DNA of 64,000 nucleotides from Deltaproteobacteria bacterium YD0425bin50 (GTDB lineage Bacteria; Desulfobacterota; Desulfobacteria; Desulfobacterales; YD0425bin50). Where the stretch lies: the NCBI GenBank assembly GCA_002753105.1, contig PDZT01000002.1:1415-65414 (forward strand). The letters run 5' to 3'. This document shows positions 20,242-51,678 of the stretch, one piece after another. The position numbers and the translations under genes were made by a program. The number at the start of each line of letters is the position of its first letter. Positions within the stretch are counted from its first letter, which is position 1. The notes under the pieces are model-generated. The model was given only the letters and a program-made list of their open reading frames with translations. It was not told the DNA's origin and did no database searches.

Positions 20242-20274
20242 TGTATGATCTAATCGAATAGTGAGGAAGTTATC

Positions 20275-21669: not shown

Positions 21670-21687
21670 TCATAATTATGTTTAGAA

Positions 21688-22611: not shown

Positions 22612-22688
22612 AGCTGTTTTTGTCAGAACAAGCTTTAAGCTTTTCCCATTAGGTTTTCACCTTTTATAAAAAACTTTTCTGGAAAGCT

Positions 22689-22815
22689 ATAGATTTTCAG
22701 ATATTAAATTTCACAATTGAGCACAAAATGAGAAGTGGTAAATTCCCGTAGGGGCGAGGCATGCCTCGGCCCTACAATCGTTCATCTTTGCAATTATTTA
22801 TCTGAAAATCTGTAT
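22689..22815. repeat. REP/MITE-like palindromic element with GC-rich core hairpin
   Basis: Core GTAGGGGCGAGGCATGCCTCGGCCCTAC (22748-22775) is an imperfect palindrome. It is flanked by the outer inverted words AGATTTTCAGATA (22691-22703) and TATCTGAAAATCT (22798-22810). GC-rich island in AT-rich intergenic DNA. Confidence 0.6.
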
Positions 22816-22861
22816 ATTGAACAAAAATATTTTTTAAAAATCAAAGTAAGGAGATTTTACC

Positions 22862-23347: not shown

Positions 23348-23376
23348 GTAAGTAATCAAAACGTATAGGAATTATT

Positions 23377-24588: not shown

Positions 24589-24670
24589 TCAATGAAACGC
24601 ATGACCATGATCATTATCGACATCTGTACCAACTTGAATTTGGCCAATCTTTGATGAGGATTGAAAAATT

Positions 24671-25372: not shown

Positions 25373-25411
25373 AGACAGAAAATCAAGGCCGGTAATGCAA
25401 TAAGAAAAAAA

Positions 25412-28400: not shown

Positions 28401-28432
28401 TTGTTGCAAGACATATACCTATGGTACTATAA
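25412..28432 (+). CDS. large polytopic membrane protein, GT-C-like / PTPS-related membrane family, with N-terminal beta-sandwich (CARDB-like) domains
   Basis: 1006 aa. Signal peptide, then two segments like ISNKGTDIAQNVLIEAKL (CARDB-type). Next come >10 TM helices starting GGDTASHYYTLEYLRHTLLPKGEIGGWTHGNYAGFPILQFYFPLPFLL, and a ~330-aa C-terminal soluble domain. Family assignment is from memory only. Confidence 0.4.
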   Translation: MKHFFIKYILYLIVLFCSSFNFQFSINILQFQTAIAGEITLVVETTTSLTDSVSEINIGNSLHQVRSELKISNKGTDIAQNVLIEAKLLEEKKSVLVASQIKPSESKSASVEFSLPADKKGTFPILVTVLYEDMNGYSYSCTVLTLAHTATSPKSSLSLQALKDKYSERIYCQIVNISDPDIDITLTCHIPNELTTSQKINYLKLKNGKAFAEFDINHREGLLGSKYTIFITAEYEHAGIHYLNYTEILIPIEKKFPIRLSLSLRNKVLFIIALLILNLLIVYITIQMTRKILLKEKSQQHFILDMLTILIIEGFIFSQMSPQYLFTQTTTTGGDTASHYYTLEYLRHTLLPKGEIGGWTHGNYAGFPILQFYFPLPFLLMCALNIFIPLQIAFKWVTLLGTFLLPPAMYMMLKYIRCPFPGPAIGSVFSLPFLFNSTNSMWGGNLPSTLAGEFSYSLSLSISLIFLGSLYHGCMKNRYLIRNAILVFLIGFSHGYTLLFVEAVSLFFLITSDEFLKRLTYMFKMYALGFFFLAFWLIPLIAFIKDTTAYHFAWSFSSLNELIPNILLPVLIIAMISTIFIQRRIRTVHISLRTSLRFLWFCMFISIIMFIFATKLGVVDIRFVPYGQLMICIIAALGLGWLGNCLDKRRNISWIGLILISVGTIIWTSKYVEPVPSWSKWNYEGFEAKKDWPLYCKINDSIRGTFQDPRVIFEHSPIHNRFGTSRAFESLPLFAGRSTLEGLYMQASLSAPFIFYIQSEISKEKSCPFRQYTCTDMDFGRAKHHLEMFNVRELILISEEAKTAIRNYPEFYRLQQKIEKYEIWELISHEGHYVVPLKYEPILYVTNDWKTDAYRWFTTDEISDVHVVFVENLKTVSPFKIKTESLENIKRIPIDTNACWIKETIQDEEILIETNWINKPLLVKVSYHQNWKIEGADQIYSVSPAFMLIFPNHKKVRLYYAHGMPKKIGMALTGLGIVILLMNVPLPWKHKSTAWQLVARHIPMVL

Positions 28433-28567
28433 ATTATAAATTATTTCGTGCAGGAACAAAAAGATGAAATTTCACGATTTATCAGAAAAGCTTATCTGAA
28501 ATATTACTTACGTCACAGCTATGCCATAGAATGGCATTTCACAGCGAAATCGGATGAATTATATTAA

Positions 28568-28713
28568 GGAATGGCAATTTTATAACTTACTTTTTTGTCT
28601 TGAACTGTGATTTATTTGATTCATGTGATCGCTATGATTATCATAGTTAATCACACAAATCAGACGAATCACAGTTCAAGACAATACGGAAATTTATTTA
28701 ATGTCCATCCCTA
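28568..28713. repeat. 146-bp hairpin element, copy A (GTCTTGAAC family)
   Basis: The reverse complement matches 32533-32678 at 144/146 positions by hand alignment. Internally it is an imperfect palindrome with ~45-nt arms ending in TTGTCTTGAACTGTGATT / AATCACAGTTCAAGACAA. Confidence 0.85.
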
Positions 28714-28789
28714 AGCAATTCAAATTGTTTTTGAATTTTGCTTTTCGATAAGTTAAAGGCTGCTGCCATAAATCTAATCCAACTATTAA

Positions 28790-36043: not shown

Positions 36044-36193
36044 TTATATTATGGTTAGATTTTGGTTTTGTTTGAGTAACAACAATATGACCACCTCACG
36101 ATAATTTAAAAAAGCAACCACTTCTTTTTCTAAAGAATCTGATAATTCTCTTTTAAATTCAATTCGATTTGACTCATGTGTGGTCATATTCAT
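36044..36193 (-). pseudogene. frameshifted N-terminal remnant of an AlbA_2/Schlafen-type (divergent AAA, RecG-like) regulator gene
   Basis: Hand translation: MNMTTHESNRIEFKRELSDSLEKEVVAFLNYREVVILLLL... The ESxxIEFK....D.L.KEVVAFxN pattern is the usual start of this family. The expected (R)EGGHI would be restored by one extra G in GAGGTGGTCAT. Only ~50 codons remain, and the ATG directly abuts the megasynthase TGA. Confidence 0.4.
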
Positions 36194-39100
36194 TCATATA
36201 ATCCCATCTTCACGATCTTCTCCATCTCTTGCAGCTTGACCTTCCGAAATCTGAATGGCAATATCCGCAATTCTTGGCTTATCGAACAGCTCAGCTAATG
36301 CCAGCTCAAGTTTAAACGCTTTTCGGATCTGCATAACCAACTGAGTCAGCAGCAGCGAGTTGCCTCCAAGCTCAAAAAAGCTGTCATGTGCACCAATCCC
36401 GTTCATACCTAAAAGATTTTCCCATAACTGAGCAAGCTTGATCTGTATCTCACCGCTTGGAGCAACAAAATTGCCAAGCAACGCTGGGCGATTGTGTCTT
36501 TTTATCAGTACGGCGGGTTCATTTTTATCCATATTCACCCACTGCCGAATACGAAGATCAAGATGACCGCACGATATAACAATTCTAGGCAAAGTACCGC
36601 CATAAAAAGGCAGCATACGTTGGAAAGCCTCAACACCTTCATTTGCCGTAAGTCCAAGTTCGATTACAGAAGCTCCAAGCTGGGCAATTGGTGGTGTAGA
36701 TTCATCAAAACGCCAGCCTTCCCAGTTGACACTTAACCAGTGAGTTGGATGGCGCTGATTATGAGCATATACAAAAGCATCAAGGCATGTATTGGCTGCA
36801 GCATATGCTGTAAAACCAACGCCACCTAAAATTGATGAAAGTGAAGAACAGAGCATACAAAAATCAAGCGGACGATCTCCTAGTACCTTTTCCAGAACCG
36901 ATGCACCTATAAGTTTAGGTATGAATTGAGACATACAGAAGGCTTGAGTGGTTTCACTTACCGAGGAAAAAGACTGTTCCCCAACCAAGCCAGCAGCATG
37001 GATAACCCCTTTTAACAAGCCGGAAAATAAATCTATATCTTTTATCAACGCTGTCATCTGCTGAATATCCGCCACATCTGCACAGGCATATTTCAGATTT
37101 ACCCCTTTAGATTTAAGCTGATTGAACCGGTCAATCCGTTCCTGACCTGATTCTTCAAACGGACGGCGTCCAGTAAGAATAATAGTCGCATCTGGCGACA
37201 TCTCAGATAGTGTTTTGGCGAAAGTCATGCCAATATTTCCAAGACCTCCGGTAATCAGATAGGCTCCTGAGCGCGAAAACTTGACAGCGTTTTCCTTGGG
37301 TTTTTCTAAATTATACGGCTCAAAATGTTCGATTAATCGGCGTCTGCCACGCAAAGCAACAAGTTTTGAGGCGTCTTTAAAAAGAGCGAGTTCTTTGAGT
37401 ATGCTTTCAATCCATTGATGATATTTCCAGTGAACACTTTTTTCCTGCCAAGCTAATTCAGGCACATCAACATCTATAATCCGACAAGTTATATTAGAAT
37501 ATTCCTGAGGTATAACTTTCATCGCTCCAATGACTGCCGCCTTAGCTGGCTGCAATACCTCATTGCCAAGCACGCTCAATACTCCGCTGGCAACAACTGT
37601 TAATGTCAAGTTATCTGTGAATGCTCTTTTGCTCAAGGCTTGGGCCAGTTCTACTATTGAGAAAAATCCTGCGTTCAGCCAGTTTTCAATTTCATCATTT
37701 TCTATCGTTTTGTTACCTTGATTATTTCCGAGCAGTCCAAGATAGACGATGTGGTTCGGAAATGTGTTCTTTGAGGCAAGCTCATCAAACAGCTTAGGCC
37801 AGTCAGTATGAGTTGGGCTGACTATTTCAGCACCAGCTTTCACTAGGGCATCAGCAATTCCAACGTTATCACCAATCACAAGCCAGCGTCCTGTAACTTG
37901 CATTGATGTTCCAATTAAAGGCTGATCACGCCATACAGGCAGATAGAACCAGTCCGCTGGGTCGGAAAGTTTAGTTGCAGCCTGTAAATCGCTATCCTGC
38001 TTTTCATCCTTTTTTACATCCATAACAGCCTGATTTCCCACCGGATCAATCCAGTATCGCTGATGTTCAAAAGGATACGTTGGCAGAGGAATTCTTTGCC
38101 TTTTTGGAATTTGGACATCGTTAAGTGTTGAGTAACGCGCTGACCAATTAATATCAATTCCTGAAACCCACAAACGAGCAATCGCAGTTAGCATCGCTGC
38201 ACAATCTGATTTCGGAACATAACGAGGATCAGACAAAGTTGACAGAACCATGTGACCTGAAGGTCTGCCCGGTTGCTGCATCGCAAGACTGGTAAGCGTC
38301 TGGCCAGCTCCAGCCTCAAGCCAAATCGCCTGACTATGCGTTTTGAGCAGTTGACTAAATCCTTCTGCAAGTCGTACAGTTTGACGTGAGAGCTTGACAT
38401 AATGTTCCGGGTCCATTGCCTCTTCAGCCTGAATCCATTGACCTGTTACGCATGAAACATACGGAATTGTTGGCGGGTTAAACCTCACTTTTTTGAGTTC
38501 AGCTCGGAATGGTTCCAGAAAAGGTTCCATCAAGCGCGTATGAAACGCATAAGAAAGCGGCAAACGAGTATAACCAATTTCTTTTTGGCTAAGTAAACGC
38601 TCTAATTCAGTTACAGCCGCATCTGTACCGCCTACAACACATTGATTTGGCGTACTTGTCATGGCAATATCGAGCTGTGAAATTAAGGTTGATGTTAAGC
38701 CCAGCATTGAAAAAATATCATTTGAACTCATGGGCACAGCCAGCATCAGACCCGGTTTCAAAACAGGAAGCAGTTTAGCGCCTGATACGGCAACATGAAG
38801 GGCATCTTCTAAACTTAACACGCCTGAAATACACGCAGCCGTATATTCTCCCAAACTGTAACCCAGCATCGCCTGAGGTCGAACACCTAAACTTTGCCAC
38901 ATCCTCGCCAGTGCATATTCTACAATAAACAGAGGCACAGGATCAGCAGTTCTATCAGGAATTAGACTTTGTTTATCCAAAGCCGATGGATACCAGTCTG
39001 AAGGCAAATCAGGAAAATGATTACGCCTTAAAATGTCGATACAACGATCAACTTCGCTTCGAAATACAAGTTCAGTATCATACAGACTTCGAGCCATATC

Positions 39101-42100
39101 TGAATGGGCACTGTCTTGACCTGCAAACAGAAATATGACTTCTGGCGGACGTAATGGAACTGTACCTGTGATAATCTGTTTATGATATTTACCTGAAATC
39201 TGAGTAACATCTTTACTCAAAAAGCGAATGGCTTCTTCATTATTCTGGACAAGTACCGCACAGCGTTCATTAAATTGGCGGCGTCCTGTCTGGAGCGTAA
39301 AGGCAACATTAGCCAACTCGGGTAATTGGTTTTGCATAAATTCAGATAGACGTTGAGTCATACTGTTCAACGCTTTTCTGGTACGTGCTGAAACGGTTAG
39401 TAACTCGAATTGAGACGCTTTTAATGTGTTATTACGCTCCCGGTGATCGTTATACTGGCGAAAACCGGTATCCAGAAAATCGGATGGGGCTTGTGTACTC
39501 TGAATATCTGGTGTTTTAAATTCTTCTACAATAACATGCACATTCGTGCCGCCCTGACCAAATGAACTAATACCAGCCCTGCGTGTTTTGTCGTTCAGTT
39601 TAGGCCATGGCTGTAAACAAGTATTAATCGAGAATGGGCTTTTTTCTAATTCTAATTTGGGGTTAGGTTGACTAAATGTCGGCATCATGGGAATCATTTC
39701 ATGATTAAGACTTAACACCGTTTTAATCAAACTCGCAACACCAGCAGCAGTATCCAGATGACCAACGTTCGCTTTAACCGATCCAATAGTACAATAGCCA
39801 TGTTTTTCTGCTTTACTGTTTTGCTTAAAGGCTTGGGTAAGCGCAGCAACTTCTACAGCATCCCCCAAATCTGTACCTGTGCCGTGCGTTTCAATAAAAC
39901 TGATATCGTCTGCTGAAATTTTTGCCATAGTTTGTGCGTCTAAAATGACATTCGCCTGACCCTCAATACTTGGAGCCGTAAACCCAACCTTTAACGATCC
40001 ATCATTATTTACAGCATAACCGCTAATAACTGCATGAACCGTATCACCATCCTGAATTGCATCGCTCAGACGTTTTAATACCACAACAGCCACACCGCTG
40101 CCATCAACTGTGCCATTTGCTTTGATATCAAATGGCCGGCAGCGTCCATCTTTGGAAAGTATTCCCCCTTTATGATACAAATAACCTGTATCTTGCGGCA
40201 AATTAATCGTACAGCCACCTGCTAGAATTATATCCGTCTGACGGTTAAGCAAACTTTGACATCCCAACGCCACTGCTACAAGCGATGATGAACACGCTGT
40301 ATTGATACTAATGGCAGGGCCGCGCAAGTCAAGTTTATAGGCAACTCGGGTTGGGGCAAAATCTTTATCATTATGAAGCGTTACATAAAAACCACCCATC
40401 GTTTCAATCAGTTCAGGATGCCCAAGAATATTATGAATCAGGTAAGTATTCAATCCTACCCCTCCGAACATTCCAATCCGGCCATGATATCGTTTGGGAT
40501 CGTAACCAGCATGTTCTAACGCTTCAACACTGCATTCCATAAGCATTCGATGTTGCGGGTCAAGAATCTGGGCTTCACGCGGCGTCATTTCAAAGAAATC
40601 AGCATCAAATTGGTCAGCATCTGCTAGGATAAAACCCGATTTAATATACTCAGGATTATCAATCAGTTCCTGAGATACACCAACCGACCGTAACTGTTCC
40701 GTGCTCCAAAATGTGATGGATTCAACACCATTACGCAAATTTTGCCAGAATTGATCTAAGTTCGCAGCATTTGGAACCCGTAAAGCCATCCCAACAATAG
40801 CGATGGGTTCATGATTTAGGCTATCCTGAGTTGTTCTAAGTTTTTGTAAAGGAGTTTTAGAAAGCGTATCTTGAGAGTCAGATAATTGTGCGGCCTGAGT
40901 TGCAACGGTATGATAACGGAAAATATCAACCGGAGAAAGTGAACGGCCAAAAGCGGATTTAAGACGCTCAATCAAAGGCAAAATCAACAGCGAATGTCCG
41001 CCAATTTCGAAAAAATTGTCATTCATGCCAACCTGTTTAATTCCAAGCAGATCACGCCATATAGCTGCGATACGCTCTTCTGCTTCTGTACGGGGATTTA
41101 CAATCGCTGTTCGGCTAATTTCAGAACGTAAATACTCAGGCATTGGCAGTGCAGCGCGATCCACTTTACCATTTACGGTAAGCGGCAGAGAATCTACAAT
41201 GATGATGTTACTTGGCACCATGTGGGCTGGAAGCTGTAAACTCAACGCCTGTCTTAACTTCAATTCTTCCAGCTTTTCCAGCTTATCACTCACAACCCAT
41301 GCGATTAAACGAATATCCTGATCGGAACGGCGGTGAGCAATAACCACAGCCTCACGTACACCCGATTGACGAATCAGCGCATTTTCAACTTCACCAAGTT
41401 CAACCCGATAACCCCGTATTTTTACTTGATTATCAATTCGGCCAAGATAAAGAATAATACCATCAGGTCGATACTTGACTACATCGCCAGTACGATATAG
41501 CCGTTCACCGGGTAATGCGTTGACTGAAATAAACCGCTCGGCTGTCAACTGTTCCCGTCCAAGATAACCACGAGCTACACCATCACCGCCAATATACAGT
41601 TCGCCTGTAACGCCTACTGGAACAGGTTCATAATTAGTGTCCAAAATATAAAGACGTGTATTATCAATAGGTTTTCCTATGGGCAGCGAACCCGGATTGG
41701 GATCACGTTCTTCAACCTCGTAAATACAACAGCCAACCACAGTTTCAGTTGGGCCGTATTCATTTATTAATCGCGTTTCTGGAGCATGTTTACGCCACGG
41801 CGCAACCTGACGGCCTAAAAGCGCTTCACCGCCAAACACCAAGCAGCGCGTTGATCCAGCGAGTTTTTGCTCTGGGATCATGGCGTTGATCAATTCAAGA
41901 TGCGCTGGCGTGAATTTCAGTAAGCTCCAGTTTTGTCCTGACATTAGGGCAGCATGAATATTTTCAAGTTCCTGTCCATGTCCTAAATTCTGATTATCAG
42001 ATGCAAACAACCAAAGACAACGACCTGCTATTAAAGGTGTAAAAAGGCTTGTAATTGTGGCATCAAAACCAATGGATGAGTGCAGTACTGACCCATCACC

Positions 42101-45100
42101 TTCAGCAACCCGATAATATTTCACAGCCCATACTAAATAGTTTACCAGACCTTGATGAACAATCATTGTGCCTTTTGGCAGACCAGTTGAACCCGATGTA
42201 TATATGACATACGCTAAATGTTGAGGAGTTACAGGTACAACAGGATTATCTTCAGGGTGTTCGGCAAAAATGTGTTGAACATAATTATCACTGCTGCAAT
42301 CTATACTGATCACTTTTATTCCGTCTATTTCAGGGAGAGATGTTTGCAGTGGCGTATGCGTCAACAGAATTTTTACATGAGCATCTGATAGCATAAACGC
42401 TAAACGTTTAGGGGGATACGTAGGATCGAGCGGAAGATAAGCGGCACCGGCTTTAAGTATTCCTAAAAGGCTGGCTACAAGTTCGATAGAATGGTGCATA
42501 TATATGCCAATAACATCTTCTGGACGCGTACCATGTGCAAGCAGTCCATGAGCAATACGATTGGCAATATGATTTAATTCTCGATAGCTAATCTGTCTTG
42601 AACCTGAACGCAGGGCTATGGCTTCGGGATACTTCGCAGCCTGCTCTTCAAACAAATGGTGCATACATTTATCTTTGGGATAGTCAACTGTCGTGGCATT
42701 CCAGTCAAACAGTATCTGCTGTTTTTCTTTTTCTGTGAGCAGCGGCAACCTCGCTACTGTTGATTTTGGATCTTTTACGATTCCTTGCAATAAGGTTATG
42801 TAATTGTTCACATAACGCTCAATTGTGCTTGCTTCAAACAAATCAAGATTAAAATCACATTCTAAAATCAGTTTTGTTTCAACTTGTGTTAAGTTCACGG
42901 TCAGATCAAATGCAGTGAAATATATGGGCTGTGAAAGCCAGTCAATTGTCAGGTTATTCATCGCTGGCGCCGAACCCGGCCGATCAAGATTAAACAAAAC
43001 AGATACGATTGGTGAACGCTGGCCATCTCGGCGAAGATTGAGTTTTTCAATTAATTCAGCAAATGGATAATCCTGATGTTGATAGCCATAAAGTAAAACG
43101 CTGCGCATGGATTTGATATATTCAGTAAATGGCTGGTCCCAGTTTATTTTACTTCGGATAGGAATCAGATGCGTGCAATAGCCCACAAGACTATCATTGT
43201 TAGCACTAGAAGCAGCCGTGCTACGACCAGCGACAGGCATTCCAATAATAAGGTCTGTCTGACCTGTAAGTCGATGCAGCCATAGGGCATATGATGCAAA
43301 AAGAACCATGAAATCAGTACATCCCTGTGTACGACCTATAGCCGCTAGCGCATCAGAAATCTGAGAATCAATTTTAATAGCGTAACGTCCGCCCCGATAA
43401 GTTTTAATTGCAGGTTCAATATAGTCTGTTGGCAGCATCGTAACAGGTAATTCACCTTGTAATTGATTCAGCCAATACTCTTCTTGTTTTGGAAAAGTAG
43501 TGTGATTGCGCCATTCCACATATTCTTGCCATGACTGGGGAGTATTTACATTTTGGCCATTATAAAAAGCTGCCAGTTCACGCATAATAATATTCATGGA
43601 AAGTCCATCGATTACAATATGGTGCCCTTTAAAGACTAAGCACCAGTCCTCCTCTGCTATTTTTAACAGATTGACTTCAAATAATGGGCCGCGTTTCAGA
43701 TCAAATCGCTGACGTGCATAGTCTGCAAGCCATTCACTTATGTTCGACTTGCTGTCTGCTTGTAATTGGGTCAAATCAACACTATTCAGTTTCCCGTTAC
43801 CGGGCAGGTCATTAAGGGAGAGCACCTTTTGATAATCGCCATCAATCACTGAACGCAAAGACGCATGGCGTTCGATTACTTTTAGCAGGGCTGCTTCAAG
43901 CGCGGATATGTCAACCTTTCCTTTAAGTGAGAGCAAAGGGCTTACATGATAGGCTTTTGAGCCTTCAGGTGCGATCTGATCCAGAACCGCAAGTTGACGT
44001 TGAGCTTTAGTTAATGGAATGAAGTGTGTGAAAGATGAACAAGAACTCGCTGAAGCCGCTGAAACGGATTTGGTTTTGCTTGATTCAGGTAAAAAACCGC
44101 CTTGACGCATCTCAATGACACTTTCTTTGACGGCTTTAATTATATGAGCAATATCTGCGTCTGTATGCGCTGAGCAGAGAAAATAATTGCGCCATTCCCA
44201 TATAAATACGCCCTTTTCCATCATATGATAGAAAAGCAGTTCAAAGTTTGCAGAAAAGGCGAATCGGAAGAGCGAACCGAAATAGACAACTTTGATGGGT
44301 ATTTCTTCAGCTTCAAAAAATCGGTTGAGATTTTCTGCCATCTCCTTGGTTTTACGGTTCAATTCCAGTTGCAACGCTGGCCCTTGTGCTTTTAAGTAAC
44401 GTAAACTGGCTAAGGTGGCAACCATAGCCGTTGGATGCTGACAGAAAGTTCCGCCAAATATGGTTCGGTTGACTTTCGGATAGGAAGCATCATTGTATTG
44501 CCATGCGCCGCCATCAATGGCATCCATATATTTGGCCATGCCTGCAACAACGCCTATTGGCATACCTCCGCCGAGAACTTTTCCATACGTGGCAATATCG
44601 GCTTTAATTCCAAATATGGCTTGAGCACCGCCCGGATGCACTCTAAATCCAGTGATCATTTCATCAACAATAAAGACGATGCCGTTATCACTAGTAATTT
44701 TTCGTAATTCATGTAAAAATTCACGGGGCTGCAAATCAGGACGACGGCTTTGAACCGATTCGACAATAACCGCGGCAATTTCTTTAGCATGGTTGCGGAT
44801 ATAGTCCAAAGCTGAGGGAGTATCATATTCGAGTATCCATAGGTCATCAACTGCATGTTGATTGATTCCGGGTGCAACAGGAACTGTATTAAGGATATTG
44901 TCCTGCCATACGGCACGTCCCATCACATTATCCGCATGTCCGTGATAGGCATTTTCAAACATAACGATTTTATTACGCAGTGTTACCGCCCGAGCTATAC
45001 GCAACGCAGCCATTACGGCTTCAGTACCACTATTGGTATATGTAACCCGCTCCATGCCAGTAAATTCGCATATCAACTCAGAGGCTTCTAAAACTTCAAA

Positions 45101-46093
45101 CGGTCTAGGCCCAAGTATTCGACAGGCTTTAGAATTGTTTAGGGCTTCAAGGATAAAATCTGGTTCATGACCAAATAGAATAACGCCCTGACCCATGGTA
45201 ATATCAACATACTCATTATCGTCGATATCCCAGACTCTAGCCCCTTTTCCATATTTTCCAACAATGGGGTACAACATTTCTTTGGTTGTAAATCTAAATC
45301 CTACGGCGGCTCGACTGTCAGCAAGTACACCGCGATATTTTGCTGTAAGCTCTTTTGATTTACGGGTTCGTTTTGTGTAGCGGCTTATCAGTGCCTCAAG
45401 ATGCGCTCGCTGTCGTTCAGTTAAACCTCGTGCTCTAATTTCAAGCGGAGATAACAGCTTGTGCATCACAGCAGAAGACGTCGCTTTTTCTGGTGGCTTT
45501 TCTATTGGTTTTTGCGGAGATTTTTCTGCACTTTTTTCTATAATTTTTTCTGGAACTTTTGCTGATACTTTCTCCAAGTCCGTAGATTTAAGATCAGAAA
45601 GATTTAACTCACCTAAAAATTGGAGCTGCCGTGCAACTAAATTAGAAATGGTCTGAGAAGCTGCCTGCATCTGCTGATTAAAAATGACATTGAGCATACT
45701 GGAATCAAACGTGCCAGTAGGTATAGAGACAGGTGCGGTTATAGGTGTAGATGCAGATATAGGCGCAGGTGTAACTGTAGGTATAGGTGTAGATATTGGC
45801 ATTGAAGGTTTGGCTGCAACATTATCAGGTAGTGCAGGCGATGCAGAATCTGCACTGTTATCTGCAATATAATCCACCAATGCTCGCATATTCGTAAGCT
45901 GCTCAAAAAACATGGGAATTTCTATCTTTAGTTTATATTTGTTTTCAATGGCCTGCTGTACTTGCATTAACACCAATGAATTTGCGCCCATTTCTAAAAA
46001 TGGTATTTCAAGATAGTCGTCCCCCGGCAATTCGGGTAATGCTTTTTCCAAAAAAACTTTAAGAAACTTGATAATCTCTTGCTTTTTTCCCAT
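36194..46093 (-). CDS. hybrid NRPS-PKS megasynthase: ACP - class III aminotransferase - C - A - PCP - KS - AT - KR - ACP
   Basis: 3299 aa with these motifs. Carrier Ser39 (EMGANSL). PLP Lys in ATYGKVLGGGMPIG (GSA-aminomutase-like). HHIVIDG (C domain). YTSGSTGLPKG, GELYIGGDGVARGY, YRTGD, GRIDNQVKIRGYRVELGEVE and NGKVDR (A domain). FFEIGGHSL (PCP). NTACSSS / ETHGTGT / ANVGHL (KS). GYSLGEY / YAFH (AT). TGGLGNIG / YAAAN (KR). FFELGGNSL (ACP). No TE or R domain. Confidence 0.9.
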   Translation of the reverse strand: MGKKQEIIKFLKVFLEKALPELPGDDYLEIPFLEMGANSLVLMQVQQAIENKYKLKIEIPMFFEQLTNMRALVDYIADNSADSASPALPDNVAAKPSMPISTPIPTVTPAPISASTPITAPVSIPTGTFDSSMLNVIFNQQMQAASQTISNLVARQLQFLGELNLSDLKSTDLEKVSAKVPEKIIEKSAEKSPQKPIEKPPEKATSSAVMHKLLSPLEIRARGLTERQRAHLEALISRYTKRTRKSKELTAKYRGVLADSRAAVGFRFTTKEMLYPIVGKYGKGARVWDIDDNEYVDITMGQGVILFGHEPDFILEALNNSKACRILGPRPFEVLEASELICEFTGMERVTYTNSGTEAVMAALRIARAVTLRNKIVMFENAYHGHADNVMGRAVWQDNILNTVPVAPGINQHAVDDLWILEYDTPSALDYIRNHAKEIAAVIVESVQSRRPDLQPREFLHELRKITSDNGIVFIVDEMITGFRVHPGGAQAIFGIKADIATYGKVLGGGMPIGVVAGMAKYMDAIDGGAWQYNDASYPKVNRTIFGGTFCQHPTAMVATLASLRYLKAQGPALQLELNRKTKEMAENLNRFFEAEEIPIKVVYFGSLFRFAFSANFELLFYHMMEKGVFIWEWRNYFLCSAHTDADIAHIIKAVKESVIEMRQGGFLPESSKTKSVSAASASSCSSFTHFIPLTKAQRQLAVLDQIAPEGSKAYHVSPLLSLKGKVDISALEAALLKVIERHASLRSVIDGDYQKVLSLNDLPGNGKLNSVDLTQLQADSKSNISEWLADYARQRFDLKRGPLFEVNLLKIAEEDWCLVFKGHHIVIDGLSMNIIMRELAAFYNGQNVNTPQSWQEYVEWRNHTTFPKQEEYWLNQLQGELPVTMLPTDYIEPAIKTYRGGRYAIKIDSQISDALAAIGRTQGCTDFMVLFASYALWLHRLTGQTDLIIGMPVAGRSTAASSANNDSLVGYCTHLIPIRSKINWDQPFTEYIKSMRSVLLYGYQHQDYPFAELIEKLNLRRDGQRSPIVSVLFNLDRPGSAPAMNNLTIDWLSQPIYFTAFDLTVNLTQVETKLILECDFNLDLFEASTIERYVNNYITLLQGIVKDPKSTVARLPLLTEKEKQQILFDWNATTVDYPKDKCMHHLFEEQAAKYPEAIALRSGSRQISYRELNHIANRIAHGLLAHGTRPEDVIGIYMHHSIELVASLLGILKAGAAYLPLDPTYPPKRLAFMLSDAHVKILLTHTPLQTSLPEIDGIKVISIDCSSDNYVQHIFAEHPEDNPVVPVTPQHLAYVIYTSGSTGLPKGTMIVHQGLVNYLVWAVKYYRVAEGDGSVLHSSIGFDATITSLFTPLIAGRCLWLFASDNQNLGHGQELENIHAALMSGQNWSLLKFTPAHLELINAMIPEQKLAGSTRCLVFGGEALLGRQVAPWRKHAPETRLINEYGPTETVVGCCIYEVEERDPNPGSLPIGKPIDNTRLYILDTNYEPVPVGVTGELYIGGDGVARGYLGREQLTAERFISVNALPGERLYRTGDVVKYRPDGIILYLGRIDNQVKIRGYRVELGEVENALIRQSGVREAVVIAHRRSDQDIRLIAWVVSDKLEKLEELKLRQALSLQLPAHMVPSNIIIVDSLPLTVNGKVDRAALPMPEYLRSEISRTAIVNPRTEAEERIAAIWRDLLGIKQVGMNDNFFEIGGHSLLILPLIERLKSAFGRSLSPVDIFRYHTVATQAAQLSDSQDTLSKTPLQKLRTTQDSLNHEPIAIVGMALRVPNAANLDQFWQNLRNGVESITFWSTEQLRSVGVSQELIDNPEYIKSGFILADADQFDADFFEMTPREAQILDPQHRMLMECSVEALEHAGYDPKRYHGRIGMFGGVGLNTYLIHNILGHPELIETMGGFYVTLHNDKDFAPTRVAYKLDLRGPAISINTACSSSLVAVALGCQSLLNRQTDIILAGGCTINLPQDTGYLYHKGGILSKDGRCRPFDIKANGTVDGSGVAVVVLKRLSDAIQDGDTVHAVISGYAVNNDGSLKVGFTAPSIEGQANVILDAQTMAKISADDISFIETHGTGTDLGDAVEVAALTQAFKQNSKAEKHGYCTIGSVKANVGHLDTAAGVASLIKTVLSLNHEMIPMMPTFSQPNPKLELEKSPFSINTCLQPWPKLNDKTRRAGISSFGQGGTNVHVIVEEFKTPDIQSTQAPSDFLDTGFRQYNDHRERNNTLKASQFELLTVSARTRKALNSMTQRLSEFMQNQLPELANVAFTLQTGRRQFNERCAVLVQNNEEAIRFLSKDVTQISGKYHKQIITGTVPLRPPEVIFLFAGQDSAHSDMARSLYDTELVFRSEVDRCIDILRRNHFPDLPSDWYPSALDKQSLIPDRTADPVPLFIVEYALARMWQSLGVRPQAMLGYSLGEYTAACISGVLSLEDALHVAVSGAKLLPVLKPGLMLAVPMSSNDIFSMLGLTSTLISQLDIAMTSTPNQCVVGGTDAAVTELERLLSQKEIGYTRLPLSYAFHTRLMEPFLEPFRAELKKVRFNPPTIPYVSCVTGQWIQAEEAMDPEHYVKLSRQTVRLAEGFSQLLKTHSQAIWLEAGAGQTLTSLAMQQPGRPSGHMVLSTLSDPRYVPKSDCAAMLTAIARLWVSGIDINWSARYSTLNDVQIPKRQRIPLPTYPFEHQRYWIDPVGNQAVMDVKKDEKQDSDLQAATKLSDPADWFYLPVWRDQPLIGTSMQVTGRWLVIGDNVGIADALVKAGAEIVSPTHTDWPKLFDELASKNTFPNHIVYLGLLGNNQGNKTIENDEIENWLNAGFFSIVELAQALSKRAFTDNLTLTVVASGVLSVLGNEVLQPAKAAVIGAMKVIPQEYSNITCRIIDVDVPELAWQEKSVHWKYHQWIESILKELALFKDASKLVALRGRRRLIEHFEPYNLEKPKENAVKFSRSGAYLITGGLGNIGMTFAKTLSEMSPDATIILTGRRPFEESGQERIDRFNQLKSKGVNLKYACADVADIQQMTALIKDIDLFSGLLKGVIHAAGLVGEQSFSSVSETTQAFCMSQFIPKLIGASVLEKVLGDRPLDFCMLCSSLSSILGGVGFTAYAAANTCLDAFVYAHNQRHPTHWLSVNWEGWRFDESTPPIAQLGASVIELGLTANEGVEAFQRMLPFYGGTLPRIVISCGHLDLRIRQWVNMDKNEPAVLIKRHNRPALLGNFVAPSGEIQIKLAQLWENLLGMNGIGAHDSFFELGGNSLLLTQLVMQIRKAFKLELALAELFDKPRIADIAIQISEGQAARDGEDREDGII

Positions 46094-46223
46094 TAGAATA
46101 CCTGTAAATAGGTTAATTTTTTATTAAAAATAGTACTATAATTGAACTGTATTACTTCAACAAAATTATGTGAAGTTCATTAATAACTTCTTTCATTTCA
46201 CGAGAACTTCTGAGTCTCTTTTT

Positions 46224-46640
46224 TTACTGTTCTTCAATAATATACTCTACTAGTCTCTGATTTTCTTTTGTGTGTTCCAAATAATCAAATAGTGTATTTT
46301 CAATTGCTGATTCAAGCATTGATGTTATTTTTTTATCTGAGTTGAAACTCATATTTTTTCCATAATGCCCTGTTTTTAAGTCTATGAATATAGGCAAATA
46401 TTCACTTTTATCAATAATCCCAATCAAGTAACGCCCTACCGAATTATGTACATGAATACGAAGTTTTACTATTTCTACTGTAATATTATCGAATAGTTCT
46501 GTCGTTAATTTGGCTTCACCTTTTCTAAAACCAATACGCATAAACTCTTTAATATTAGAAACAATATCTTGCTCATTAAAATGGTTTTTAAATTTTTTTA
46601 GCACCTTACGAAAATATTGAGTAATTAAAATTTTTTTCAT
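46224..46640 (-). CDS. RelE/ParE-superfamily-like toxin with C-terminal extension (putative)
   Basis: 138 aa. The pattern ...VKLRIHVHNSVGRYLIGIIDKSEYLPIFIDLK resembles the K.R....GKSGGYR.I......ii.L..i..K core of RelE/HigB-type toxins. ATGA overlap with the upstream 83-aa ORF. Confidence 0.45.
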   Translation of the reverse strand: MKKILITQYFRKVLKKFKNHFNEQDIVSNIKEFMRIGFRKGEAKLTTELFDNITVEIVKLRIHVHNSVGRYLIGIIDKSEYLPIFIDLKTGHYGKNMSFNSDKKITSMLESAIENTLFDYLEHTKENQRLVEYIIEEQ

Positions 46641-46888
46641 TGTGCAGTGGCATTAATAATTTTTCGATTTTTATATTTTTCAGCTACACTTCCAAGAATA
46701 TTTTGTATGTTTGGTGATTTTATAGTATTAACCACAATATTTTCAAAATGTCGTTCTTCAGATTCATCTTCTAAAAAATCACGAAGTTTACTAATGTTCT
46801 CAATTATAAGATGTGCCAATCTGTCTTGCTCTTGTTGGCTAAATTTATATGAAACCATATTAAAGGCTTCTTGAAGTAATTTTGTCAT
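46637..46888 (-). CDS. putative antitoxin
   Basis: 83 aa. The N-terminus LLQEAFNMVSYKFSQQEQDRLAHLIIENI resembles the common antitoxin start (L...A......LP..EQD.LA..LL). Strong AAGGAG lies 5 nt upstream of the ATG. 4-nt overlap with the downstream ORF. Confidence 0.45.
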   Translation of the reverse strand: MTKLLQEAFNMVSYKFSQQEQDRLAHLIIENISKLRDFLEDESEERHFENIVVNTIKSPNIQNILGSVAEKYKNRKIINATAQ

Positions 46889-48116
46889 AATTCTCCTTTT
46901 TCATTCGCTTTTCCTCACTTTTGCGAAGAAACTCTAATTTAACACGTATCATCAACCCACTATGCTGCCCAGCATCTATTTCAAAGGGTGCCATATACAG
47001 ATAACCGTTATGAAGAACTCCGCCAATAAATCCTCGGCAAGCCGGATTCACTATGGCTGTATCAAGAATTGTCCAGCTATTCGGATCAGTAAATGCAAAG
47101 TTTGAGTCATAGATTGTCATTTGTCCATGATATTTTTCAATTCCTCTGCAATGAGGCATAAAATAGACATAACGGCCGTCATTTAACGCACCAAAAAAAC
47201 CTCGACTGCCCGGGTCAATTATCGCACTGTCAAAAAATTCCCATGAAGCAGAATCAGCTATATCCAATTCAGTATTATATCGCGCAACCTGACCATATCG
47301 GTCATTACCATCAAAATACGGTGCAAGGTAGATATATTTTCCAAGACTGGTTCCACTGATAAATCCGCGTGCACGGCTATTGAAGTTCGTCAGATCAATG
47401 CTTTGCCATGCTTGATGGTCGTGAAATTCTTTTTCTCTATTGTAAAGCGTCAGCCTTCCATTATATTCTTTGCCTAAACGCAGGTAAGGAACAAAATAGA
47501 CATAGTTACCGTGAACTATTGCACCATGAAAACCACGGCAGTCAGAATACAGTTGTTGGGTATCAAAAACCTGCCAAGCAGTCTTATCAGAAAAAGACAA
47601 GCCAGTATTATAGCGTGTCACCTGACTATTCGTCGTATTCCAATCTACCTGATAGGGCGATAGGTAAATATAAGAACCATCAAAACACCCGCTCACAAAA
47701 CCACGACAGTTGGGATGAAGCGTAGTGGTATCAAAAAAACTCCAGCTTTTGGAATCATCAAACGTTAACCTTGTATCATATCTGGTCACTGTACCATGAT
47801 GCTTACCCAGTTGTTGATAAAACGGAATAAAATAAATATATTGCCCATCAAATAGCAGATCAACAAATCCACGGCTATCAGGATTAATTTTGGTAATTTC
47901 GAATATATTCCAGCTATCTGGTTGATCAAAAGGTAGAGTTGGATCAAATCGCAGAACCTGAGCCACAGTAGTACCGTTATTACAGGGTGACAAATATATA
48001 TAACGGCCATCAAACACTACGCCTGAAAATCCTTTACACAAAGGATGCAAGCTCGTTAAGTCGAATAATTCTATGGCTAATTCATGTTGATTAAAATTTT
48101 TTTGCCATGCATTCAT
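46860..48116 (-). CDS. seven-repeat (~52 aa) protein, predicted beta-propeller, unknown function
   Basis: 418 aa. Seven units of pattern [CSA][KR]GF.G....G.Y[IV]Y..P...........G.V.RY.T...F.D...W..FD (CKGFSG, SRGFVD, CRGFVS, CRGFHG, ARGFIS, SRGFFG, CRGFIG). I could not assign a named family. Confidence 0.6.
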   Translation of the reverse strand: MNAWQKNFNQHELAIELFDLTSLHPLCKGFSGVVFDGRYIYLSPCNNGTTVAQVLRFDPTLPFDQPDSWNIFEITKINPDSRGFVDLLFDGQYIYFIPFYQQLGKHHGTVTRYDTRLTFDDSKSWSFFDTTTLHPNCRGFVSGCFDGSYIYLSPYQVDWNTTNSQVTRYNTGLSFSDKTAWQVFDTQQLYSDCRGFHGAIVHGNYVYFVPYLRLGKEYNGRLTLYNREKEFHDHQAWQSIDLTNFNSRARGFISGTSLGKYIYLAPYFDGNDRYGQVARYNTELDIADSASWEFFDSAIIDPGSRGFFGALNDGRYVYFMPHCRGIEKYHGQMTIYDSNFAFTDPNSWTILDTAIVNPACRGFIGGVLHNGYLYMAPFEIDAGQHSGLMIRVKLEFLRKSEEKRMKKENYDKITSRSL

Positions 48117-48134
48117 AGTTTTTCAACATCTTTC

Positions 48135-49214
48135 TTAAGTAATTTTCACCGTCAAGTAATTTGGAAACGGCAATACCTTGCTTAAATCGTTTTCAAAAAT
48201 CATCAGTCCGTCAGCTCGCGTTTCTAATTCTTGAAAGTGATTAAATTTATACGTCATATACATCATTCTGTTACGGTCATTGGAAATCATTTCTGCCAGC
48301 AAACGCACGCCATTATTCCGAGCTTCATTACGAATATGGTTGATCAGTACCGTACCTACGCCTCTCGTCATGACACGGCATGACATGAGCAGCAATTTGA
48401 TCATCCATGCTTTAGGATCACACTCAATCAGCACAAGACCTATTTTACCATAAGTTCCATATTTGTCTTCCAAACCTGCTATTAAAAGACGGTGGCGGTC
48501 AGAATGCCTAAAAAAGTCAAGCTCGTCATGAGAATAGGTATAGCCGGTTGTATTGAGTTGATTTGTTCTGACCGTCAGCTCTTCAGCCCGCTTTAAATCT
48601 TCGGAACGCGGCGTGCCTATTGTCAGCACCATCTCAAGCGTAGCTAGAAAATCCTCTTTGGGGCCTTCAAAATTATCTTCAATTTTTTTCCGGTTAATAT
48701 CAGCTAAATACATCTGACGACGTTTAGCTGAATCTTCGGTAATAAATCTTGGATTCAATTCAGGAAGAGTTATCATTTGATCAATTTGCGTTTCATCAAG
48801 ACACAATACCGAAGGATGAGCAAAAGCGACCTCTTCACGTTCAAAACTTTGGTCATCAATAAATGCCAGTGCATTAATTCCGATATTGATATCTTGGGCA
48901 ATACGTGCGATGGAATCGGATTTAGGCCCCCAGTGAATCTGGGGATATAGAAAATAGTCGGCTATGCCAAGTTCTTCAAGTCGTTTCATCACCAAAGTAT
49001 GTTCATTTTTTGATGCAATCGATTGCAATATACCGCGTTTATCAAGCGTCTGCATAATCTCAAGCACACCTTCCCTTAGTTCAACCTGCGGGTCTTCTAA
49101 CAGAGTACCGTTCCAAAGCGTATTATCCAAGTCCCACACTACGCACTTTACATTTCGTTTAGAACGCTCTTTAGTAATCTCTTGTTCTTGTTGTTCTTTT
49201 GTTGTTGCAGTCAT
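48135..49214 (-). CDS. FkbH-like HAD phosphatase/glyceryl-ACP loading enzyme
   Basis: 359 aa. KCVVWDLDNTLWNGTLLED (HAD DxDxT), IASKNE, FIDDQSFEREEV and LLLMSCRVMTRGVG (the FkbH/OzmB-type active Cys region). Confidence 0.8.
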   Translation of the reverse strand: MTATTKEQQEQEITKERSKRNVKCVVWDLDNTLWNGTLLEDPQVELREGVLEIMQTLDKRGILQSIASKNEHTLVMKRLEELGIADYFLYPQIHWGPKSDSIARIAQDINIGINALAFIDDQSFEREEVAFAHPSVLCLDETQIDQMITLPELNPRFITEDSAKRRQMYLADINRKKIEDNFEGPKEDFLATLEMVLTIGTPRSEDLKRAEELTVRTNQLNTTGYTYSHDELDFFRHSDRHRLLIAGLEDKYGTYGKIGLVLIECDPKAWMIKLLLMSCRVMTRGVGTVLINHIRNEARNNGVRLLAEMISNDRNRMMYMTYKFNHFQELETRADGLMIFENDLSKVLPFPNYLTVKIT

Positions 49215-49274
49215 TTTGTATTACATCCTCATCTTTAATCTGTATAATCTGTGTAATCTGCGGATACTAAGATA

Positions 49275-50444
49275 CTAAGTTGATAGAGCTGTTTTAATTG
49301 CCTGATAGTTTTGAAACGCATATCTTGAGATGATAATCTGCTGCATCTGGTTACTACCTTCAATAATCTCCATAATCTTTGCATCTCTAAAATGCCGTTC
49401 AACTGCATAACGGTTAGAACAGCCATTGGCGCCGTGTATCTGAACAGCATCGCTGGCCACTTTTAAAGCCGTTCGTGATGCAAAATATTTTGCCATAGAA
49501 GTCTCCATGATCACGGATGGGTCTTTGTTTTCTCTTAAAAATGCAGCTTTGTAACAGAGCATTCGTGAAGCCTGAGTCTGGGTAACCATATCTGCGACCA
49601 TTTCCTGAATCAGTTGATGTTCTTTAAGACTCACGCCAAATTGTTTTCTTTCGTTACTGTATGCGAGCGATGAATCAACACAGCCCATTGCCATTCCAAG
49701 ACTTCCCCATGCTATGCAATACCGCCCCTGATCCAAAGCTGTTCCAGCAACATGCGAAAAACCAAAACCAACTCGGCCAACTAAATTTTCAGCAGGCACG
49801 CGACAGTTGTTCAGGTTAAGACCTGCCAGCATTGCCGAACGAAATCCAAGCAGACCTTTGATGGGTTCGGTTGCAAAGCCTTCCCGTTCCCGCTCGACAA
49901 TAAATGCGGCTGCCTTGCCATCTACCTGAGCAATAACCAAAAAAAATTGAGCGAGTTGTCCAAATGATAACCACCGTTTCTTACCATTCAGGATATAAGA
50001 ATCACCATCAATAACAGCCGTTGTCTGAACATTTTTGGCATCACTGCCGATTTTTTCTTCAGTAAGAGCAAAACCGCCAATTAATTCACCGCTTGCTAAA
50101 CCGGGTAAAAAACGCTGACGCTGCTCTTCTGTTCCCCACTTAGTCATGGTCTGAATTACCATACTCTGAACAGTCAACAGAGAGACTAAAGCGGCGCTGA
50201 CATGGCCGACTTCTGCACATAAAAGTCCCCACGTAAGAGCATCCATCTGGGCTCGCTCTTTTCCAGAATATTGGACAGGCACAAGACCGCCAAGATATCC
50301 CGCATCCGCCATAGCCTTGATAAGTTCTAAAGGCGTCTCTTCTCGGCTGTCATATTCGGCCGCATAGGGAGCGATATACTTTTCTACAAACTCACGAAAC
50401 CCGGTGCGGGCTTTACTCTGTTCCGTGCTTAATTCAAAATTCAT
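49275..50444 (-). CDS. acyl-CoA/acyl-ACP dehydrogenase (FkbI/ZmaE-like by context)
   Basis: 389 aa ACAD fold. GGFALTEEKIGSDA, KRWLSFG, and a C-terminal FRDAKIMEIIEGSNQMQQIIISR with the catalytic Glu context. Confidence 0.8.
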   Translation of the reverse strand: MNFELSTEQSKARTGFREFVEKYIAPYAAEYDSREETPLELIKAMADAGYLGGLVPVQYSGKERAQMDALTWGLLCAEVGHVSAALVSLLTVQSMVIQTMTKWGTEEQRQRFLPGLASGELIGGFALTEEKIGSDAKNVQTTAVIDGDSYILNGKKRWLSFGQLAQFFLVIAQVDGKAAAFIVEREREGFATEPIKGLLGFRSAMLAGLNLNNCRVPAENLVGRVGFGFSHVAGTALDQGRYCIAWGSLGMAMGCVDSSLAYSNERKQFGVSLKEHQLIQEMVADMVTQTQASRMLCYKAAFLRENKDPSVIMETSMAKYFASRTALKVASDAVQIHGANGCSNRYAVERHFRDAKIMEIIEGSNQMQQIIISRYAFQNYQAIKTALST

Positions 50445-50473
50445 TGTATCTCCTCAATATCTTTAAAAAATGT

Positions 50474-50734
50474 TTAGGCTATGTTCAGCTTACGCTGAAT
50501 AAAAGCAAATAACGCATCGAGCGATTTGAAATTTTCAATATCAAGATCCGTATTTTCAACTTTAAACCCAAAGTCTTTTTCTATAAACAAGACCAGTTGC
50601 ATGGCAAACAAAGAATTTACCCGTCCCGAAGCAAACAAATCAAGATCAGGGGTAATTTCATTAATATTGACATATTTTCCGACAAACTGGGTTAATTTAG
50701 ACATAATTTCTTCAGTATTCATTGTATTCACCAT
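50474..50734 (-). CDS. discrete acyl carrier protein (FkbJ/ZmaD-like by context)
   Basis: 86 aa. DLFASGRVNSLFAMQLVLFIE contains the phosphopantetheine Ser context. Confidence 0.75.
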   Translation of the reverse strand: MVNTMNTEEIMSKLTQFVGKYVNINEITPDLDLFASGRVNSLFAMQLVLFIEKDFGFKVENTDLDIENFKSLDALFAFIQRKLNIA

Positions 50735-50773
50735 AGAGTCTTTTTATTTTAAAAAGTTTAAAAAATAATTTTA

Positions 50774-51628
50774 TCAATAAGAATAAAAACCCTTACCGCT
50801 TTTACGTCCATGTAATCCAGCGTCAACCATTTTCTTGAGCAGCGTACATGGGCGGTATTTACTGTCATTAAAGCTTTCATACAAAACTTCAATTGAATAG
50901 AGGATGGTATCAAGTCCGATCAGGTCAGCAGTTTCAAGCGGTCCCATTTTATGACCAAAGCATTTTTTAAATATGTCATCAACCTGTTTGGCTGTAGCAA
51001 CCTGTTCTTGAAGTAAAAATACGGCTTCATTAATGGTAAGCATCAATACACGGTTAGAGACAAACCCCGGAGAATCATTTACAATCACCCAATCTTTGCC
51101 CATCGCTGTCAGCAATTCACTCGTAATTGAAATTGTTTCTTCAGAAGTATGCCAGCCTTTGATCACCTCAACAGTCGGTTTCATAGGAACAGGATTCATA
51201 AAATGAATTCCAATGATCTTATCTGGACGCTTGGTTAACGCAGCTACACGCGTAATCGAATAACACGATGTATCCACAGCAAATACAGCATTTTCAGGGC
51301 AAATTTTATCAATTAAAGGATAAACAGACTCTTTAACTGCCCATTTTTCAACTACATTTTCAACGACGTAATAGGCATCTTTGAGTTGTTCATAGTCTGT
51401 TGTGAATAAAACCCGGCCTACAATCGTATCTGGATTATCAAGTTGGCTCTTATCTCTCTTCATAAAACCTTGGAAACGGACATTGTTGTAAATTTCTTGA
51501 CGTGCTCTTTCAAGAACTTTCTCAGCAATATCAACCAGCACAACCTTAAACCCACGCTGTGCCAGATTCTGTGCTACACCACTTCCCATTACGCCGGCTC
51601 CAACTACGCCTACTGTCTTTTCACTCAT
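50774..51628 (-). CDS. 3-hydroxyacyl-CoA/ACP dehydrogenase (FkbK/ZmaG-like by context)
   Basis: 284 aa. Rossmann VGVVGAGVMGSGVAQNLAQ, and a HADH core with IGIHFMNPVPMKPTVEVI and NRVLMLTINEAV. Confidence 0.85.
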   Translation of the reverse strand: MSEKTVGVVGAGVMGSGVAQNLAQRGFKVVLVDIAEKVLERARQEIYNNVRFQGFMKRDKSQLDNPDTIVGRVLFTTDYEQLKDAYYVVENVVEKWAVKESVYPLIDKICPENAVFAVDTSCYSITRVAALTKRPDKIIGIHFMNPVPMKPTVEVIKGWHTSEETISITSELLTAMGKDWVIVNDSPGFVSNRVLMLTINEAVFLLQEQVATAKQVDDIFKKCFGHKMGPLETADLIGLDTILYSIEVLYESFNDSKYRPCTLLKKMVDAGLHGRKSGKGFYSY

Positions 51629-51678
51629 ACTTTACTCCTGTTTTTTTATTTTTTTATTCAATAAATAAATATAATCAA

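Follow-up and report, generated by a model that had tools for sequence, protein, structure and literature searches.

Does a large synthetase gene in Deltaproteobacteria bacterium YD0425bin50 follow the logic by which mycosubtilin and iturin are made, or does it only resemble those systems in part? The window, by which we mean the whole stretch of DNA analysed (64,000 nucleotides of contig PDZT01000002.1), contains on its minus strand an open reading frame (ORF) of 3299 amino acids (36194..46093). In this protein an acyl carrier protein (ACP, Ser39) is followed by an aminotransferase domain (AMT, Lys505), by condensation (C), adenylation (A) and peptidyl carrier (PCP) domains, and then by ketosynthase (KS), acyltransferase (AT), ketoreductase (KR) and ACP domains. 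A sequence-only reading of nucleotides 40889..46093, an interval which corresponds exactly to residues 1-1735 (ACP through PCP), had proposed iturin/mycosubtilin-like logic. Our analysis gives a probability of about 0.8 that residues 1-1735 form a MycA-type unit, which would add an amine to the chain and then couple that chain to Asn. As chemistry this would be a sound, unsurprising example of a known hybrid assembly line; the interest lies in an orphan, widely spread cluster family and in a possible hydroxymalonyl-plus-transamination route.

Domain organization of the synthetase

The Pfam scan of the 3299-aa protein returned, in order, PP-binding, Aminotran_3, Condensation, AMP-binding, PP-binding, KS, AT, KR and PP-binding, and the domain E-values rule out chance. 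The N-terminal carrier (aa 23-76; 45866..46027, on the minus strand like all the domains and biosynthetic genes described below) scored 34.2 bits in a separate scan of the first 266 residues, against a PP-binding cut-off of 20.8. Its phosphopantetheine site, Ser39 (codon 45977..45979), lies inside PFLEMGANSL, which was identical throughout a 10-sequence alignment of the nearest relatives; the megasynthase thus opens with a carrier, as had been claimed. Between this carrier and the AMT runs a linker of about 135 residues (45449..45856), which on translation was Pro/Ser/Thr/Ala-rich and then Lys/Glu/Pro-rich. No credible Pfam domain was found in it, the best match being TerB_C at 17.9 bits against a cut-off of 26.3.

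The AMT domain occupies aa 224-670 (44084..45424), with the Aminotran_3 match at aa 277-633 (7e-50). It is followed by the Condensation domain (aa 690-1128; 42710..44026; 2e-91) with the motif HHIVIDG, in which H824, H825, D829 and G830 were invariant in the alignment of the ten nearest proteins. The A domain (aa 1148-1643; 41165..42652) was matched by AMP-binding at aa 1148-1511 and by its C-terminal part at 1568-1643, and the PCP (aa 1673-1735; 40889..41077; PP-binding, 49.6 bits) carries Ser1701 in FFEIGGHSLL. The C-A-PCP order read earlier from the translation was therefore recovered by Pfam. Across the ten nearest proteins the Ser39 motif, Lys505, HHxxxDG and the residues of the A-domain code were invariant or nearly so. 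Pfam detected neither a thioesterase (TE) nor PF00296 or any other oxygenase domain in the 3299-aa protein. No exact copy of this protein was on record in public assemblies.

The aminotransferase domain is of the MycA type

The AMT domain was searched with phmmer against all PDB sequences, and the top match, aligned end to end, was the AMT domain of mycosubtilin synthase MycA (6KFM, 6KFR and 6KFU; E 4e-145), with 52% identity across 450 residues. Glutamate-1-semialdehyde (GSA) aminomutases trailed at about 1e-50. The description of this domain as a GSA-aminomutase-like class III aminotransferase was borne out, and by the match to 6KFM it can be given more exactly as MycA type. Lys505 (codon 44579..44581; TYGKVLGGG) was aligned to the lysine of TYGKIIGGG in the MycA AMT crystal sequence and to that of LGKIIGGG in HemL of the same genome, and it was invariant in the clade described below. 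From the established knowledge of the aminomutase family, we take this position to be the lysine that binds pyridoxal 5′-phosphate (PLP). The sequence-only reading had placed the PLP lysine in YGKVLGGG and had named its absence on alignment beforehand as a ground for dropping the proposal; the lysine is present on alignment with both MycA and HemL. The MycA AMT has been described to transaminate a carrier-bound β-keto thioester with Gln as amine donor (PMC3870968), and by analogy the AMT here would convert a β-keto group to a β-amine, after which the C domain would couple the chain to Asn on the PCP. Literature searches retrieved no paper on the 6KFM structure.

A phylogenetic placement against MycA, ItuA and McyE had been suggested; ItuA and McyE were not among the listed matches, and the placement was carried out with MycA alone, whose sequence was rebuilt from the PDB alignment. 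In this quick tree, built from 48 AMT domains with HemL of the same genome as root, the query fell within a clade of nine with 99% SH-aLRT support, and MycA lay outside on a long branch. All nine members of the clade carry an N-terminal carrier and then an A domain with the Asn code. As MycA stands outside the clade, the query shares the logic of the iturin synthetases and is not itself one of them.

The adenylation domain is predicted to select Asn

The specificity code was determined by aligning GrsA and 50 A domains (51 sequences) with MAFFT L-INS-i, anchored on GrsA/1AMU; the GrsA reference is numbered like 1AMU chain A and agrees with it in 526 of 527 residues. The code obtained was DATKVGEVGK (D1344, A1345, T1348, K1393, V1419, G1421, E1445, V1453, G1454 and K1643), and the GrsA control in the same alignment gave its published DAWTIAAICK. 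These are the same ten residues that had been extracted by hand. BLASTP against GrsA gave D235, A236, T239, K278, V299, G301, E322, V330 and K517, with a one-residue gap that leaves position 331 as C or G; the MAFFT alignment settles on G. DATKVGEVGK is listed as Asn for two zeamine A domains (PMC3547906), and its earlier identification as a published Asn code was thus correct.

Ten-residue codes are predictive, and one A domain predicted to be of the Asn type has been reported to accept Gln as well as Asn (PMC4219810). It was therefore considered whether the domain loads a substrate other than L-Asn, such as Asp, Gln or a hydroxylated Asn, so that the likeness to iturin would end at amination. 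We regard this as improbable, for all ten residues match the code listed as Asn, and the same or a near-identical code is kept across the clade.

A probable split module precedes the aminotransferase

An AMT of this kind would need a β-keto thioester on the N-terminal carrier, and the most probable source of it lies 5.6 kb upstream of the synthetase gene on a separate polypeptide. This 1299-aa polyketide synthase (PKS; 51679..55578) was seen from Pfam, the sequence and the AT motifs to combine a KS with two ATs, of which the first is a decayed remnant and the second stands beyond a long linker. The KS motifs are intact (DTACSSS, EAHGTAT and KANIGHL), and the second AT has GYSIGEY, Arg at Ser+25 and HAFH. 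Neither KR, DH (dehydratase) nor PP-binding was found by Pfam in this protein. Since the KS-AT protein has no carrier and the synthetase starts with one that lacks a loading domain, the two most likely constitute one split module; such a module would be without a KR, and a β-keto group would therefore be available to the AMT.

Further upstream are two reducing PKS genes (55598..64000), each with the Pfam order KS-AT-DH-KR-ACP. The first of them runs past the window to about 66918, as seen in the 4.5 kb of contig sequence beyond the window end. The remark that the unit is embedded in a different PKS context holds.

From these features a course of assembly can be proposed. The reducing modules would make an unsaturated acyl chain, the KS-AT protein would add one C2 unit on the N-terminal carrier (Ser39) to give a β-keto thioester, and the PLP-dependent AMT (Lys505) would turn the β-keto group into a β-amine. 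The C domain would then couple the β-aminoacyl thioester to Asn loaded on the PCP by the A domain. The use of the N-terminal carrier by the KS-AT protein, the direction of chain flow, Asn as substrate and the amine donor (Gln in MycA) are presumed in this scheme. The fused KS-AT-KR-ACP would lengthen the Asn carboxyl by one ketide and reduce it. In relatives, a nonribosomal peptide synthetase (NRPS) of the order C-A(Thr or Ser)-PCP-sulfotransferase-C-A(Gly-like)-PCP-TE would add two residues and release the product, possibly via a lactam on the β-amine as in iturins. The chain that receives the amine is probably a polyunsaturated polyketide on a fatty-acyl starter, not a plain β-amino fatty acid, and it may carry a 2-hydroxyl group because the cluster is always accompanied by an FkbH cassette.

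Several observations weigh against a working MycA-type unit of this kind. Docking elements by which the KS-AT protein could meet the N-terminal carrier were not found, and the assignment of Asn is a prediction from the code. The AT of the fused module (AT*; 38336..39136) has no carboxylate-binding Arg at Ser+25, which bears on the loading of that module. The locus may also be rearranged or incomplete: the cluster in the window ends at an ACP without a TE and is followed by a convergent lon gene, and the stretch immediately upstream of the synthetase holds an inserted toxin-antitoxin-like pair.

An FkbH cassette and the choice of extender unit

Between the KS-AT gene and the synthetase gene lies a four-gene extender-unit cassette of the FkbH type (48135..51628), recognized from Pfam, NCBIfam and synteny in about 20 loci. 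It comprises a 3-hydroxyacyl-CoA dehydrogenase-like gene (50774..51628; Pfam), a discrete 86-aa ACP (50474..50734; Pfam), an acyl-CoA dehydrogenase-like gene (49275..50444; Pfam) and FkbH itself (48135..49214; TIGR01686, 281.7 bits against a cut-off of 146.65). FkbH, a discrete ACP and two dehydrogenase-like genes are the components of a (hydroxy/methoxy)malonyl-ACP cassette. No methyltransferase was in view with these genes, and hydroxymalonyl rather than the methoxy unit is therefore expected. It is a real possibility, falling somewhat short of an even chance, that the C2 unit under the AMT is FkbH-derived hydroxymalonyl rather than malonyl, which would give a 3-amino-2-hydroxy acid. Such an acid is the protease-inhibitor head group of bestatin and the microginins, and if the FkbH unit does feed the aminated module, the cluster would represent a second biosynthetic route to 3-amino-2-hydroxy acids.

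The cassette was also weighed in another role, in which FkbH would load a glycerate-derived C3 unit on the N-terminal carrier, oxidation would give a 2-hydroxy-3-oxopropionyl group, and transamination would turn this into an isoserine-type starter; assembly would begin here, with the PKS genes used at some other point of the pathway. The cassette does sit directly upstream, and neither an A nor an AT domain precedes the carrier within the 3299-aa protein. However, the cassette has its own 86-aa ACP and all four genes for hydroxymalonyl-ACP, and the KS-AT protein, with its KS intact, would be left with no carrier; a carrier was likewise not seen in the KS-AT proteins of Delftia and Thalassomonas. 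The gene order and a TubC_N docking domain on the downstream NRPS moreover fit a colinear flow. A starter module of this kind is thus very improbable, and the split module that would extend a chain made upstream remains the preferred interpretation.

Which module uses the FkbH unit was approached in two ways. ZmaA AT (4QBU) was the best PDB match for both the second AT of the 1299-aa PKS and AT*, and both of these ATs have the unusual GYSxGEY motif of ZmaA plus a one-residue insertion. This match was at first a candidate sign that both ATs use hydroxymalonyl-ACP, and it was dropped when pairwise comparison gave equal similarity for two canonical ATs; the choice of extender is therefore not readable from similarity to ZmaA. 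The presence or absence of the cassette across loci also failed to reveal the user, for both searched genomes without an adjacent cassette encode FkbH elsewhere, in one of them apparently about 20 kb away on the same contig. FkbH was found in all of the relatives' genomes searched (4/4).

The missing Arg of AT* is not peculiar to this genome. In the orthologues (L002, L016, L022, L053, L067, L088, L091 and other loci), Gly, Ser, Cys or Ala stood at Ser+25 in every case where the active-site motif was located. AT* carries LPFHT or YAFHT where HAFH is expected, and in loci L004, L093 and L027 the entire AT of the KS-AT-KR-ACP module was undetectable. AT* may have been conserved as a relic or put to another use, with the second AT of the 1299-aa PKS possibly serving it in trans.

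Comparison with known systems

In MycA and ItuA, as here, an in-line AMT of the glutamate-1-semialdehyde aminotransferase type stands between a carrier and a C domain; there, and probably here too, it acts on a carrier-bound β-keto thioester, and the chain is then coupled to Asn. The order carrier-AMT-C-A(Asn) is that described for MycA (PMC4219810, PMC3870968), and the arrangement assigned earlier to MycA/ItuA thus matches the literature for MycA. The present unit has the features of MycA-type in-line β-amination: the AMT between carrier and C, the PLP lysine, a preceding module without KR or DH, and a predicted Asn code. In contrast, MycA unites fatty-acyl ligase, ACP, KS, AT, ACP, AMT, C, A and PCP in one protein, whereas KS and AT are here on a separate protein. 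MycA is followed by six further NRPS modules that lead to a heptapeptide ring, whereas here a PKS module follows Asn and the relatives add only two amino acids; the chain here would also come from several reducing PKS modules. None of the marks of the iturin family itself was found, that is, a ligase, ACP, KS and AT on the AMT polypeptide, six further NRPS modules, or grouping of the AMT with MycA. The iturin/mycosubtilin-like logic that had been proposed stands, with 52% identity to the MycA AMT and the Asn code; the unit is not a member of the iturin family, given the split module and the separate clade.

PuwE of the puwainaphycin pathway in Cylindrospermum (PMC4219810) is similar in that a fatty acyl-AMP ligase (FAAL) starts a chain which undergoes PKS extension, meets an in-line AMT and passes to an NRPS. 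Cyanobacterial KS-AT-ACP-AMT(-Ox)-C-A proteins were many among the matches, at 45-50% identity. In PuwE, however, a 3-amino-2-hydroxy acid arises via a monooxygenase domain, and the first amino acid is Val. The monooxygenase domain beside the AMT that marks the puwainaphycin/microginin type was not found by Pfam in the 3299-aa protein; a 2-hydroxyl here could come only from an FkbH-derived unit, and the amino acid would be Asn.

Hybrid synthetases of about 4465 residues from Burkholderia have the order KS-AT-...-ACP-AMT-C-A-PCP, with an AMT about 55% identical to the query. They differ in that the AMT is internal, without an N-terminal carrier, and in that the next A domain has the code DVWHVSLVDK (Ser-type). 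These proteins probably belong to the occidiofungin/burkholdine cluster. The four-gene FkbH cassette and two ATs with GYSxGEY recall ZmaA (zwittermicin) and the FkbH/FkbI/FkbJ/FkbK cassettes, but ZmaA has no AMT domain, and the canonical ATs of the window are overall as similar to ZmaA. An N-acyl-D-Asn prodrug motif of the colibactin/amicoumacin type was considered and rejected, as no starter C domain, no epimerization (E) domain and no ClbP-like peptidase occurred among the annotated cluster genes in the window.

A family of related clusters

The nearest proteins have the organization ACP-AMT-C-A-PCP and 1816-1932 residues, with 46-72% identity in the ACP-AMT region (top match, 59%). Their sources are metagenomes and metagenome-assembled genomes (MAGs), and the Asn code, exact or changed at one residue, was present in nine of the proteins. 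A locus scan with one genome per species returned 80 loci, about 20 of which keep the order KS-AT, dehydrogenase, ACP, acyl-CoA dehydrogenase, FkbH, propeller protein, ACP-AMT-C-A(Asn)-PCP and KS-AT-KR-ACP. Together with a fatty-acyl ligase-like loader PKS and reducing PKSs, this gene set spans about 20 species in several phyla. Named carriers are Delftia sp. PS-11, Thalassomonas sp. RHCl1, Algibacillus agarilyticus and Desulfamplus magnetovallimortis, and carriers among MAGs belong to Beggiatoa, Thiotrichales, Magnetococcales, Arenicellales, Rhodocyclaceae, Comamonadaceae, Balneolaceae, Chitinophagales, Verrucomicrobiales and Latescibacterota. MycA-type β-amination with coupling to Asn would thereby be extended from Bacillus to Pseudomonadota, Thermodesulfobacteriota, Bacteroidota, Verrucomicrobiota and others. 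The four named carriers are cultivable, and the product and the split-module design are therefore open to direct laboratory testing. No paper on the cluster family or its product turned up in literature searches, which covered the code, the combination of domains, the taxa and the PDB entries.

The fused module of the window, KS(1762-2137)-AT*(2320-2586)-KR(2943-3128)-ACP(3219-3279) (36257..40810; Pfam), is a separate gene in most relatives, and in the window it is fused in frame to ACP-AMT-C-A-PCP. At the L002 locus the two genes are separate and overlap by a few bases; at the junction in the window (40810..40889) a short linker replaces the Lys/Arg-rich C-terminal tail of the separate L002 protein. 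A comparable fusion was present in a Desulfobacterales MAG (locus L025).

The loader in Thalassomonas has an adenylation-like N-terminal region, followed by a carrier and KS-AT-DH-(KR)-ACP, and this region is probably a FAAL. For the Delftia loader, in which a carrier and KS-AT-DH-(KR)-ACP also follow, we infer an adenylation-like region from an unannotated N-terminal stretch of 700 residues. In Thalassomonas the loader gene follows the NRPS; in Delftia it precedes the PKS genes, and an NRPS-TE gene stands upstream of these at the head of the cluster. The Thalassomonas locus also has in its vicinity a type II thioesterase, an FAD oxidase and efflux genes.

In L003 and L004 the next gene is an NRPS that starts with a TubC_N docking domain. 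In about 10 loci an NRPS bearing a sulfotransferase lay within the fetched stretch, and 4 loci showed a TE; examples of this NRPS are L003 (16018-24858), L004 (from 21864), Thalassomonas contig C13 (about 64.9-73.4 kb) and Delftia sp. PS-11. Taken together, the family might make an undescribed class of exported, probably sulfated lipopeptides, with a polyunsaturated 3-amino-2-hydroxy head group formed via FkbH-derived hydroxymalonyl-ACP and in-line transamination, an undescribed route distinct from the oxygenase route of cyanobacteria, and with one AT at the C-terminal end of the KS protein serving two modules with decayed ATs. We put this forward as speculation and consider it doubtful as a whole.

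The position of the sulfotransferase (PF13469) in these NRPSs was itself unusual: the domain is embedded downstream of an A domain that has a Thr/Ser code, where a PCP precedes it and a C domain comes next.

State of the locus and its origin

The genome, a MAG, is 75% complete and has its 4.97 Mb spread over 589 contigs; the contig of the window ends 4.5 kb past it, after a radical-SAM/SPASM gene (L001 5785-6795) that lies upstream of the first PKS gene. No counterpart of this gene was found in the related loci searched. Elsewhere in the assembly, contig C1 encodes a loader-like protein, FAAL-ACP-KS-AT-DH-KR-ACP, which shares 46% identity with the loader of Delftia. Contig C369 (3704 bases) encodes only C-A(DILQLGVVWK, Gly-type)-PCP-TE with one in-frame TAA, and shows about 50% identity to the terminal part of the NRPS in relatives; it is likely the missing terminus of the pathway or a broken copy of it.

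It has to be asked whether the locus in this genome is a rearranged or decaying copy from which no finished product would come. No TE follows the last ACP and lon comes directly after it, the TAA in C369 interrupts the candidate terminal NRPS fragment, and no match to a sulfotransferase domain was found in the assembly at its 75% completeness. In addition, two small AT-rich ORFs of 138 and 83 residues without a Pfam match (46224..46888) separate the propeller gene from the synthetase. At the L002 locus this gap is only about 50 bases, and tblastn starts suggest that it is equally tight in most other loci, so the pair looks like an insertion specific to this genome. On the other hand, all the large ORFs of the window are intact with their catalytic motifs kept, the NRPS-TE gene of Delftia lies upstream of the PKS genes and could here lie beyond the contig end, and the assembly is fragmented and incomplete. 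Decay is on this evidence unlikely, though a real possibility, and the best explanation for the missing TE lies in a gene order like that of Delftia and in the fragmentation of the assembly.

Next to the synthetase, the 418-aa repeat protein (46860..48116) appears propeller-like from a weak Kelch match below the Pfam cut-off, and no NCBIfam family was found for it. Its gene is kept beside the ACP-AMT gene in about 22 related loci.

The Lon protease adjoining the cluster is at most 68% identical to any protein found, and its named matches are from Desulfobacterales and Thermodesulfobacteriota. An AMT homologue was present in 1 of 30 genomes of the same order, at 52-53% identity. The G+C content is 38-43% in the cluster half of the window (36001..64000), with 40-43% in the cluster itself, against 33-36% in the pilus/housekeeping half (1..36000). 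This contrast and the scattered taxonomic distribution, with which the single AMT homologue in the order agrees, point to acquisition of the cluster by horizontal transfer.

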